Source: Naegleria gruberi
Taxonomy: Eukaryota
Length of the DNA stretch: 1,070 nucleotides
Direction: 5' to 3' (one strand)
Assembly (NCBI GenBank): GCA_000004985.1
Contig: GG739583.1
The notes beneath the pieces are model-generated. The model was not told the DNA's origin, did not search any database, and saw only the letters and a program-made list of their open reading frames with translations. Both the position numbers and the translations under genes were made by a program. Below are positions 2 through 1,070 of this stretch, piece by piece (positions within the stretch are counted from its first letter, which is position 1; each line of letters begins with the position of its first letter).

Positions 2-253
2 TTCAACACTGAAGATGTTTCTCAACTTATCAAGAATGCTATATTCTCTGTTGATTCAGAAATCACTGTTTCTGGTCACAGTTTACGTATTGGTGCAACT
101 ACTGAGAGTATTATCAAGGGAATTCCTACTCAGGATATTATTATGGGGACTAGACATAAGGATGTGAAATCTTTACAACCTTATCAAAGACAAGAAGCTC
201 TTGTAGCTCGCCACTTGTCTACTACTCTCCTTTCTCAGGACAATATCCATTAG
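2..253 (+). CDS. Tyrosine recombinase (phage-integrase/Cre-like family). C-terminal catalytic fragment; the 5' end is truncated by the window edge. Stop codon TAG at 251-253.
   Basis: Frame 2 is open from the window edge and translates to FNTEDVSQLIKNAIFSVDSEITVSGHSLRIGATTESIIKGIPTQDIIMGTRHKDVKSLQPYQRQEALVARHLSTTLLSQDNIH*. It carries box I 'GHSLRIG' (His at codon 77-79, Arg at 86-88), box II His at 155-157 and the nucleophile Tyr at 182-184. The H/R/H/Y spacing (0, +3, +26, +35) equals the Cre spacing H289/R292/W315/Y324. About 22 residues follow the Tyr before the stop, as in Cre. GC is about 38% here versus about 26% downstream. Confidence 0.85.
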   Translation, partial: FNTEDVSQLIKNAIFSVDSEITVSGHSLRIGATTESIIKGIPTQDIIMGTRHKDVKSLQPYQRQEALVARHLSTTLLSQDNIH

Positions 254-285
254 TTTATTTATTGTTGGTTTTCTTTTAAGAAACA
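243..285 (+). repeat. 43-bp perfect direct repeat, copy 1 (atatccattagtttatttattgttggttttcttttaagaaaca). It overlaps the last three codons (I-H-stop) of the recombinase gene. Candidate recombination core or att-type site.
   Basis: All 43 positions are identical to 772-814. The boundaries are sharp: position 242 is a where 771 is t, and 286 is t where 815 is c. The copy contains the recurrent ATTAGTTTATT motif at 249-259. Confidence 0.9.
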
Positions 286-336
286 TGTTCTTATCGAAGT
301 TTACTGAGATAAAGTAGTGTTTCTTGAAAACAACAA

Positions 337-351
337 TTGAATAAACTAATA
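337..351 (-). repeat. Left arm of a 15-bp perfect inverted repeat (plus-strand ttgaataaactaata; reverse complement tattagtttattcaa).
   Basis: Its reverse complement is identical to 411-425. It contains the ATTAGTTTATT motif in inverted orientation. For a 15-mer inverted match the chance expectation in this window is about 0.01. Confidence 0.75.
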
Positions 352-354
352 GAA

Positions 355-380
355 AGTATGATCAAAAAAATTGTCATACT
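355..380. other. Hairpin with a 7-bp perfect stem (agtatga / tcatact) and a 12-nt A-rich loop (tcaaaaaaattg).
   Basis: 355-361 agtatga is the reverse complement of 374-380 tcatact. The stem is AT-rich with only 2 GC pairs, so it is weak as an RNA terminator. On the minus strand it is followed by uucuauu. Confidence 0.4.
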
Positions 381-385
381 ATAGT

Positions 386-402
386 CCCACCCTTGCCCAC
401 CC
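386..402 (-). other. Motif on the minus strand capable of forming a G-quadruplex (G4): GGGTGGGCAAGGGTGGG. On the plus strand it reads cccacccttgcccaccc, an i-motif candidate.
   Basis: Four G3 tracts with loops of 1, 3 and 1 nt satisfy the canonical G3+N1-7 pattern, and short loops favour a stable parallel G4. It is the only GC cluster in a stretch of about 26% GC. It sits inside the inverted-repeat-bounded segment next to the hairpin. Confidence 0.6.
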
Positions 403-410
403 TCTATTAT

Positions 411-425
411 TATTAGTTTATTCAA
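411..425 (+). repeat. Right arm of the 15-bp perfect inverted repeat (tattagtttattcaa).
   Basis: Identical to the reverse complement of 337-351. The two arms enclose a 59-bp segment (352-410) that contains a hairpin and the G-tract motif. Confidence 0.75.
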
Positions 426-429
426 ATCA

Positions 430-443
430 AAGGTTCTAACCTT
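430..443. promoter_or_regulatory. 14-bp palindrome aaggtt-ct-aacctt (6-bp arms, 2-bp centre). Candidate dimeric protein-binding site.
   Basis: aaggtt (430-435) is the exact reverse complement of aacctt (438-443). It lies 5 bp after the right inverted-repeat arm. Confidence 0.3.
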
Positions 444-662
444 TATCCTTAATACTTTGGAATGTGATTTTTTAACCAATCCTCAAATATTTTCTCAATT
501 GATTGAAAGATTTCACTCTATTTGTATTATTGAAAGATGATTGTTATCATCTTTTTATCTTTGTATTATTATTTGATATTTGACAACTTGGTTTATTGTC
601 AGATTGCTTTAATTTAGTTTAGTTTTTGCTTTTTGTTAAGAAATCATAGTATGATTGTATTG

Positions 663-675
663 ATTAGTTTATTTA
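663..675 (+). repeat. Additional direct copy of the recurrent motif (attagtttattta), matching 249-261 and 778-790.
   Basis: A 13/13 match to the 5' part of the 43-bp repeat. It lies 109 bp upstream of repeat copy 2. Confidence 0.6.
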
Positions 676-734
676 ATTTCTGGACCTGCTGAATAAAACA
701 TAATGCCTAAAAACAGCAGTAACCAGGCTACAAA

Positions 735-752
735 CTACCTAAGAATAGGTAG
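735..752. other. Perfect hairpin ctaccta-agaa-taggtag (7-bp stem, 4-nt loop). It overlaps the stop codon of the minus-strand ORF.
   Basis: 735-741 is the reverse complement of 746-752. On the minus strand it is followed by only UUUG, so it is not a convincing intrinsic terminator. Confidence 0.35.
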
Positions 753-1070
753 AAGTTGTAGTGTGAGCTTTATATCCATTAGTTTATTTATTGTTGGTTT
801 TCTTTTAAGAAACACAACGCCAAAACCAGAATAGTTCTCCAAAAGAAACAATAAAACAATCGTTGATAAACCAATAGGTAGAAGCTCACTCAATATATTC
901 CACATCCAAAAGGATGGTATATGTTGCTCAGAAATGCTGCTTTGAAGGTCATTGACTTTATTGAACATTGTCCCGAGTAAATAAGGTTGTTTACAAAATC
1001 GAGATTGAAGTAGAACAACTCCTATAAAAAACCTGCATTGCAGGAAAAAATTAGTAAAACTCAATCCATA
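735..1070 (-). CDS. Hypothetical small hydrophobic (possibly membrane) protein, at least 111 codons. The 5' end probably lies beyond the window, since the frame is still open at position 1070. Stop codon TAG at 737-735.
   Basis: The only long open frame outside the recombinase gene. An open run of 111 or more codons on a roughly 72% AT strand has about 1e-4 chance per frame. There is no competing plus-strand ORF. The predicted protein has hydrophobic stretches (LSELLPIGLSTIVLLFLLENYSGFGVVFL) followed by a basic tail (KRKPTINK). The listed 'M' start is really TTG at 1064-1062, so the true start is unknown. The codon composition (Phe/Leu-rich) also resembles antisense or AT-rich noise, so confidence is moderate. 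Confidence 0.4.
   Translation of the reverse strand, partial: YGLSFTNFFLQCRFFIGVVLLQSRFCKQPYLLGTMFNKVNDLQSSISEQHIPSFWMWNILSELLPIGLSTIVLLFLLENYSGFGVVFLKRKPTINKLMDIKLTLQLLPILR
744..755 (+). repeat. 12-bp direct repeat aataggtagaag, copy 1. The partner copy is at 873-884.
   Basis: The two exact 12-mers are 129 bp (43 codons) apart and bracket 43-bp repeat copy 2. Each has an adjacent 7-mer: gtgagct at 763-769 and agctcac at 883-889, which are mutually inverted. A 12-mer direct repeat alone is only weakly significant here (expectation about 0.3). Confidence 0.4.
772..814 (+). repeat. 43-bp perfect direct repeat, copy 2. It lies 529 bp downstream of copy 1, inside the minus-strand ORF.
   Basis: Identical to 243-285 over all 43 positions with unrelated flanks on both sides. 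It reproduces ...ATC CAT TAG of the recombinase 3' end. A chance match is negligible, even at this AT bias. Confidence 0.9.
873..884 (+). repeat. 12-bp direct repeat aataggtagaag, copy 2.
   Basis: Exact match to 744-755. It overlaps agctcac, the inverted partner of gtgagct at 763-769. Confidence 0.4.

Follow-up and report, generated by a model that had tools for sequence, protein, structure and literature searches.

We consider it likely that the stretch of Naegleria gruberi DNA analyzed here (1,070 nucleotides, G+C 31%; hereafter the window) represents the 3' end of a PAT-like retrotransposon of the DIRS order, from N. gruberi or a very close relative, and that the 89-bp unit at 337-425, in which inverted repeats enclose a hairpin and a G-quadruplex motif, reflects a rearrangement of one decayed copy of this element. 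Sequence comparison makes it nearly certain that this is a DIRS-order element of Naegleria. That the 89-bp unit is copy-specific, and not a working site, is probable and forms the weaker link of the overall reading, because the comparison rests on one intact close relative. The inverted repeat, hairpin and G-quadruplex motif found beside a recombinase gene thus lie in amoeba retrotransposon DNA and do not constitute a bacterial recombination site.

The window opens within the 3' end of a tyrosine recombinase gene. The encoded fragment retains the HxxR box (GHSLRIG), an RH pair and the catalytic tyrosine (LQPYQRQ), and the full catalytic set (ARPGE, GHKTD, HSLR, RW/RH and Y) is found in the family alignment and in the metagenome contig L008. 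The Pfam profile Phage_integrase matches the fragment below its cut-off, and also matches P0004 and other relatives, the longer of which are approximately 300 aa. The fragment is identical at 80 of 83 positions to the N. gruberi protein XP_002679188.1 (P0030), a predicted protein, and at 81 of 83 to the recombinase of L008. An exhaustive profile search returned only 27 relatives of the recombinase among 1.8 billion representatives. The named members of the family profile are all from N. gruberi or N. fowleri, apart from two unplaced 'integrase' entries, with the rest of the family derived from environmental contigs, and the N. gruberi proteins of the family are annotated just as predicted proteins. 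In three related loci, L003, L004 and L007, an ORF with reverse transcriptase and/or Dam-like matches lies directly upstream of the recombinase, overlapping it by 4 nt in two cases, and RVT_1 is also present in L004 and L007.

The window had no blastn match among 72,556 plasmid or 50,697 phage records, protein-pattern scans detected no relatives in JGI metagenomes, IMG/VR or GTDB genomes, DNA-pattern scans with the arm pair and the B repeat found no match in viral contigs, and the B-repeat scan of metagenomes likewise found none. A search of the window against Rfam gave just two sub-threshold chance matches. The single GTDB match, in a Legionella MAG (L006), was discarded: it consists of 27 nt within a gene for a membrane protein, lacks similarity on either side and is regarded as a chance identity.

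The element to which the window belongs could be reconstructed from L008, a 4,324-nt contig that carries a cluster mate of P0030 and was the sole intact close relative compared. Positions 1-389 of the window correspond to L008 3794-4185 at 98% identity, while 286-386 also correspond to L008 61-164 at 93%. L008 encodes gag (159-1277), pol (1237-3150) and the recombinase (3153-4046), and its pol product matches RVT_1 (E 3e-26) and the RNase-H-like RVT_3 (E 0.017), followed by a Dam-like match. The Pfam Dam matches are all below cut-off (E 7.8e-4 in L008, 7.5e-5 in L004 and 1.9e-5 in L003), and sit at the same place in these three lineages. Judged by its domains, the gene set of L008 is that of the DIRS order.

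Self-comparison of L008 revealed a direct repeat only, in which 61-306 recurs at 4079-4324 with 97.2% identity over 246 nt. The upstream copy, A1, starts at TGTTCTTATCG after an unrelated flank, and the downstream copy, A2, starts at the same base, right after a 43-nt repeat, B; in L008 as in the window, B is followed by the very base at which A1 starts. A2 is readable for 246 nt up to the end of the contig, which stops before its own B2. The A1-[ORFs]-B1A2 arrangement read from this contig is the split-direct-repeat layout of PAT-like and Ngaro elements, which are defined by an A1-[ORFs]-B1A2B2 layout (PMC4157794, PMC8547959). The two copies of A differ at the gag start codon, which is ATG in A1 (L008 position 159) and ATA in A2 of both L008 and the window, and the inner hairpin of A1 in L008 runs exactly up to the gag ATG. 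The features of the window are collected in Table 1.

Table 1. Coordinates of the features recognized in the 1,070-nt window, with the strand where one applies and the observation on which each is based.
Feature	Position	Strand	Basis and remarks
Tyrosine recombinase ORF, 3' end, 83 codons + TAG	2-253	+ (frame 2)	Translation, Pfam, alignments
Repeat B1, 43 nt	243-285	+	Overlaps recombinase stop codon (251-253); contains motif copy 249-259 (+)
Junction palindrome, imperfect, 108 nt	246-353		Spans B1/A2, centre ~301; self-blastn 74%, E 2e-10
Small palindrome TAAGAAACA / TGTTCTTA	277-293		At boundary 285/286; also in L008; candidate crossover core, read from sequence
First 104 nt of repeat A2	286-389	+	Internal copy of A1 leader up to gag start
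Left arm	337-351		Part of repeat A and of junction palindrome; in L008 A1 and A2
Inner hairpin	355-380	+	Fold and L008 alignment
G-quadruplex-type motif (predicted)	386-402	-	This copy only
Region without counterpart in intact copies	390-771		Patchwork of fragments
Right arm (411-425) with extension	403-425		Inverted duplicate of A leader, judged from sequence
B-like fragments (the second a partial copy)	583-645, 639-678		Weak self-matches
Second repeat B copy	772-814	+	Similarity to 243-285 lost on both sides
Inverted B-type repeat, L009-type sister family	831-879	-	blastn to L009 79-128, 84%, E 2e-9
Recombinase C-terminus remnant, weak	961-1041	-	Marginal

The boundary between B and A could be placed at 285/286 in the window from the end of the 43-nt repeat and the start of A1 in L008. 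Repeat B1 is identical to L008 4036-4078 and recurs within the window at 772-814 as an exact direct repeat (43/43; self-blastn, E 6e-18). This second copy is probably B2, the 3' terminus of the element, a label that is tentative because the sequence upstream of 772-814 is not A-like, a result that applies to the 382 nt before the copy. Neither the sequence that immediately precedes the second B copy (…GTGAGCTTT) nor the 3' end of the A repeat (GTGAGCTT) could be located in L008 or L009.

An imperfect palindrome spans the B1/A2 junction, and its outer ends are formed by the copies of a recurrent motif at 249-259 (+) and 340-350 (-); the left arm of the reported inverted repeat, 337-351, is the distal end of this palindrome. 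Sequence complementary to the same region is found again around the second B copy, where 775-818 is 80% complementary to 353-314. Assignment of 246-353 to the DIRS1-like ITR/ICR class was considered and rejected, given exact identity in the direct repeats and complementarity of 74% (246-353 with itself) or 80% (775-818). Similar features mark the junction in more distant relatives. L007 has AAACATGTT..ATCGAA in common with the window boundary, and the sequence (C)CATT(A/G)G sits right at the recombinase stop in three loci (the window, L003 and L007) and follows it at a distance of 2 nt in L009 and 15 nt in L004. A long imperfect hairpin that begins from or near the recombinase stop and extends across the boundary of B and A, with a smaller hairpin next to it, is present in the window and L008, in L009 and in L007. 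The sequences of these junction hairpins differ between the three diverged families, with fold z-scores of -4.2 to -6.5, and the outer stem displays one compensatory difference, TTTATT/AATAAA in the window versus TTTATC/GATAAA in L009, as read from the sequences. A block approximately 10 nt before the gag ATG, ATG(C/A)TCAAAAAAATT, is conserved between L008 and L009, but the hairpin on this block is not, and L009 forms a different one. In L007, a second, unrelated 12-nt perfect hairpin was also observed roughly 100 nt past the recombinase stop.

The recurrent motif, ATTAGTTTATT, has five copies in the window (249+, 340-, 412+, 663+ and 778+) compared to 0.17 expected, a count reached in none of 200 shuffles. 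In L008, it occurs only at 115(-), 4042(+) and 4133(-), that is, once in B on the plus strand and once per A copy on the minus strand, confined to the terminal repeats, and no plus-strand copy follows either A leader. The L008 copies form the outer ends of the junction palindrome. The first-pass annotation, made from the letters of the window, had described the arms of the 89-bp unit as carrying a recombinase-associated motif, and this description is borne out by L008, where the motif is found only in the terminal repeats of a recombinase-encoding element. Within the intact element, the left arm is matched by the motif of repeat B (window 249-259) instead of by 411-425.

The inverted repeat that drew attention to this region has the structure originally reported for it. 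The two 15-bp arms, TTGAATAAACTAATA (337-351) and TATTAGTTTATTCAA (411-425), are complementary at 15 of 15 positions and lie 59 nt apart, and the 7-bp stem hairpin with A7 in its loop and the G-tract are both present inside the unit by folding and regex scan. The arm pair is the longest perfect inverted repeat of the window at gaps of up to 100 nt; in 300 first-order Markov simulations of the window, none reached a 15-nt perfect inverted repeat, and the maximum was 13. Single-strand folding of 337-425, which the first-pass annotation had suggested predicting, gave computed energies of -14.2 kcal/mol for the plus strand (z = -7.2) and -13.8 kcal/mol for the minus strand (z = -5.7), with no equally stable fold among 200 shuffles. 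The stem of the inner hairpin is formed by AGTATGA (355-361) and TCATACT (374-380), with three extra pairs (CAA/TTG) around an A5 loop drawn from the A7 run. The C-rich tract CCCACCCTTGCCCACCC at 386-402 reads GGGTGGGCAAGGGTGGG on the minus strand and is, by regex scan, the sole occurrence of G3N1-7 x4 in the window, conforming to that sequence rule; in the related loci, the same scan found no such motif in L001-L005 or L007-L008.

Comparison with L008 indicates that only part of this unit belongs to the element as it is otherwise known. L008 and the window diverge at 389/390, a point that the G-tract straddles: L008 continues into gag-like sequence, whereas the window continues into the C-rich tract, the right arm and roughly 350 nt that have no match in L008 or L009. 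The G-tract and right arm extend beyond 389 and are missing after both A1 and A2 of L008, so that the 89-bp unit does not qualify as a conserved module. The arms were to be compared between copies for conservation, and in the 98%-identical L008 the recombinase and left arm are kept, without the right arm or G-tract; with the recombinase retained and the pairing lost, the unit fails as a conserved site. Window positions 408-425 are the reverse complement of L008 112-129 and 4130-4147 (18/18), which are positions 52-69 of A in L008, and the match extends to approximately 23 nt if one TAT indel is allowed. The right arm therefore is, by this alignment, a short inverted duplicate (18-23 nt) of the left-arm region of the leader, and it matches the L008 version of the left arm even better than that of the window itself. 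The left arm, which includes AATAAA (341-346), has two mutually exclusive partners, 246-260 or 411-425; in the RNA minimum-free-energy fold of 240-430 it pairs with 246-260, and in the DNA fold with 411-425.

From 390 to 1070, the window resembles a set of nested fragments of terminal repeats. Region 390-771 had no blastn, k-mer or tblastn match in L008 or L009 except for copies of the motif, an exact look-up of ten window ORFs in the sequence collection found no other copy of it, and a search for homologues of the 62-aa ORF that spans the 89-bp unit found none. By sequence, this region may derive from a rearranged A2, an insertion or older debris; it may also be that there is a sub-family whose A repeat truly contains 390-771. 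Within it, 583-602 is an exact 20-nt match to L001 660-679, a stretch that follows the recombinase in the L001 family, which is 76% identical. Judged by its match to L009, 831-879 is a second DIRS-like 3' end, arranged tail-to-tail with the first and separated by 16 nt from the B copy at 772-814. Further downstream, tblastn with residues 271-297 of the L008 recombinase matched 961-1041 on the minus strand (33%, E 0.023), with colinear 10-11-mers. A shufflon, with C-terminal swapping in the minus-strand ORF 735-1064, was considered for this part of the window and rejected, as only a sub-threshold MauE match was obtained and the region is an inverted sister-element fragment.

These results bear on what the 89-bp unit might be. 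The first-pass annotation had offered an integron attC-like folded site, a small invertible switch of the fimS or RecV type, or a replication or transfer origin, and none of these fits a recombinase that belongs to a Naegleria DIRS-order retrotransposon and a window with no plasmid or phage match. We give practically no credence to an attC-like site or a plasmid or phage replication or transfer origin. The imperfect-hairpin geometry, the good single-strand folding and the nearby tyrosine recombinase would suit such a site, but the arms, as read from sequence, have no RYYYAAC/GTTRRRY core, the recombinase is not IntI and its homologues are DIRS-type proteins of Naegleria, no plasmid or phage record is similar by blastn, and the context is eukaryotic, with no cassette array and no rep or relaxase gene. 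A fimS- or RecV-like switch, with the adjacent recombinase inverting the segment 352-410 that the 15-bp arms enclose, is very improbable. While the inverted arms adjoin a tyrosine recombinase gene and have a recombinase-linked motif inside them, this recombinase is part of a eukaryotic retrotransposon and is retained by L008 without a right arm after A1 or A2; moreover, a segment of 59 bp is very short for inversion, and 352-410 consists of leader and a mutated gag start (ATA), with no promoter facing a gene. The preference expressed in the first-pass annotation for a folded single strand fares better in one respect, in that it is a reasonable idea for an element of this order, DIRS-1 being replicated via single-stranded cDNA (PMC7192593), but the origin and attC classes are unsupported.

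Alternatively, a variant and perhaps non-autonomous sub-family of this retrotransposon might use the 89-bp unit as a functional cis-element, for example through self-priming or circle closure by a hairpin that forms in RNA or single-stranded cDNA, or through paired recombinase-binding sites, and the two options of the left arm, 246-260 and 411-425, could then act as a choice between conformations. The perfect 15-nt arms and strong fold z-scores, the exclusive partners of the left arm and their different selection in RNA and DNA folds, and the restriction of the motif to terminal repeats are all consistent with this explanation, as are the unrelated 12-nt hairpin of L007, ~100 nt after its recombinase stop, and the proposal of a 3' hairpin as the primer of DIRS-1 (PMC7192593). 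Indeed, the perfect arms, the 18/18 match of the right arm and the strong fold amount to more order than random decay predicts, and this counts against a copy-specific origin. On the other hand, the right arm and G-tract are missing from both A copies of the 98%-identical L008, no second copy of 390-771 was found by pattern scans, ORF look-ups or homologue search, and the surroundings are a patchwork of repeat fragments. Given this evidence, we regard a working element of a variant sub-family as improbable.

A further possibility concerns the junction itself. The conserved feature may be the palindromic B1/A2 junction, not the 89-bp unit, with the junction acting as an ICR-like cDNA hairpin and recombinase site, perhaps in an 'intermediate form' between PAT and DIRS1. 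The element would in this case have split direct repeats together with an internal junction that is ~75-80% self-complementary and bracketed by a pair of ATTAGTTTATT copies. An intermediate between the split direct repeats of PAT-like elements and the ITR/ICR of DIRS1-like elements has not been observed (PMC4157794), and we put this forward as an unlikely, if credible, interpretation.

Under the explanation that we favor, the 3' end of a PAT-like element in a decayed copy, the 89-bp unit would have arisen by rearrangement or nesting, and the pairing of 337-351 with 411-425 would have no function of its own. The left arm, a conserved part of repeat A, forms with the motif in B (249-259) the outer stem of the ~108-nt palindrome across B1/A2, and the inner hairpin makes up the end of the leader, immediately ahead of the start codon of gag. 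The B1/A2 junction may be an internal stored copy of the joined termini, and hence a counterpart of the internal complementary region of DIRS-1, that serves as a template or scaffold for restoring the termini in single-stranded cDNA. The recombinase crossover would take place at the junction, most plausibly at the small palindrome (277-293, with its boundary at 285/286), and the motif pair might either hold the junction hairpin together or bind the recombinase. The repeat arrangement, the junction palindrome, the confinement of the motif to terminal repeats and the lack of the unit's right half in L008 are direct observations, whereas these proposed roles in cDNA completion and recombination are extrapolated from the models that have been published for the DIRS order (PMC7192593, PMC3266345).

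DIRS, PAT-like and Ngaro elements and a model for their replication are known already, and the gain from this analysis is modest. Next to nothing is known from experiment about cis-acting sites in the DIRS order, and the Naegleria families provide a precisely defined junction of B and A, a palindrome at the boundary, and a junction hairpin whose architecture is kept in at least three diverged families. These features are candidates for the recombinase site and for a terminus-restoring structure, and specialists in transposons may find it noteworthy that an element with split direct repeats has a palindromic junction that partly resembles an ICR.

Compared to known systems, the likeness to attC and to fimS or RecV switches is limited to inverted repeats near a tyrosine recombinase and a foldable single strand; unlike those systems, the window has no attC core and no IntI or bacterial recombinase, one of the arms is missing in L008, and the context is a eukaryotic retroelement. 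The ICR of DIRS-1 is approximately 85-130 bp, lies just downstream of the last ORF and mirrors both termini, and its size and position fit 246-353; as in DIRS1-like elements, a short motif is common to the termini and the internal region (PMC3266345). The ICR of DIRS-1 is essential for retrotransposition, and the cDNA is single-stranded (PMC7192593). The ICR of a DIRS1-like element is in theory 100% complementary to its termini, whereas the internal junction here is a direct copy of the termini (97-100%) and is just 74-80% complementary to them. Ngaro elements share the split direct repeats and leave scattered remnants nested in other mobile elements, as in the patchwork of 390-1070 (PMC8547959), and solo AB repeats of Ngaro occur, for example in Cafeteria burkhardae (PMC8547959); similarly, new insertions of DIRS-1 seem to favor older copies of the same element (PMC7192593). 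Ngaro elements are without a methyltransferase-like domain, whereas weak Dam-like matches recur here in three lineages.

PAT-like elements of the Pat1 'echinoderm form' or Toc3 type have the same order of gag, pol (RT, RNase-H-like, Dam-like) and recombinase as L008, with internal repeats 3' of the recombinase, A1 repeated directly after B1 (as in L008) and B repeated downstream (as in the window, with 772-814 as the probable B2). Four differences set the Naegleria element apart. It resides in a heterolobosean amoeba; sequences from N. gruberi had been noticed in 2011 and left unclassified, with their DIRS1-like status uncertain (PMC3266345). The methyltransferase matches are below the Pfam cut-offs, which makes the assignment to PAT-like over Ngaro-like elements provisional. 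The A1…B2 layout is a composite of two copies, with A1 and B1A2 seen in L008 and B1 and a second B in the window. Finally, B and the start of A are imperfect mutual inverted repeats that generate the 108-nt junction palindrome, and no description of a palindromic B1/A2 junction in PAT-like elements was found in the DIRS-order literature searched. In its overall layout, the Naegleria element matches the published descriptions of PAT-like elements (PMC4157794, PMC3266345).

Comparison of the internal repeat copy A2 with the 5' terminal copy A1 revealed three substitutions, one of which converts the gag ATG of A1 to ATA in A2. With A1 of L008, the intact metagenomic element, as reference, the same three substitutions are common to A2 of the window and A2 of L008. 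Either A1 is not homogenised with A2 in every replication cycle, or the window and L008 copies derive from one master that already carried these differences. In L009, a sister-family contig assembled at k=127, the first and last 127 nt are identical; the assembler traversed a cycle running from the internal region through B and A and back. Such a cycle is expected from a B1A2 junction, and also if the element exists in tandem or as a circle.

Coordinates of the features discussed, by sequence
Feature	Window	Other loci
A1/A2 substitutions (L008 as A1/A2)	304, 314, 386	L008 79/4097, 89/4107, 161/4179
Identical contig ends		L009 1-127, 3981-4107
Inverted repeat, second B copy side	744-814	
Inverted repeat, sister-family side	831-903	
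27-nt match to repeat B		L006 4690-4716
In-frame TGA within RT motif region		L004 332-334
Recombinase frameshifted		L001 270-330
Recombinase truncated or with internal deletion		L002, L005
AATAAA in left arm, coding strand	341-346	
Block ATG(C/A)TCAAAAAAATT	357-372	L009 206-221; L008 133-148

The second copy of repeat B lies within an imperfect inverted repeat of roughly 70 nt, one side of which consists of this copy and about 28 nt upstream, and the other of a sister-family B fragment with adjoining sequence. Both sides share AATAGGTAGAAG and GTGAGCTT/AAGCTCAC, and neither of the intact elements, L008 or L009, carries the shared adjoining sequence. Repeat B also matches 27 nt exactly in a Legionella metagenome-assembled genome (L006; JACPOX010000095.1), within the 3'-terminal part of a membrane-protein gene. 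There was no similarity to either side of this match, which was rejected and attributed to chance in AT-rich DNA.

Many of the related loci are dead copies, with lesions in the RT motif region or the recombinase. The first homologue search, with an 83-aa fragment as query, missed the N. gruberi protein XP_002679188.1 even though it is 96% identical, and this protein was recovered only by the family profile. Caution is needed wherever the word-indexed search gave a negative result.

An AATAAA was observed inside the left arm, with an A-rich hairpin 10-30 nt downstream. This hexamer, situated within A2, is a possible poly(A) signal for the element transcript.

The block ATG(C/A)TCAAAAAAATT, located ~10 nt 5' of the gag start, is kept in two families, but the hairpins that it forms differ between them. 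Rather than forming a structure, it may belong to the start site or the translation context.
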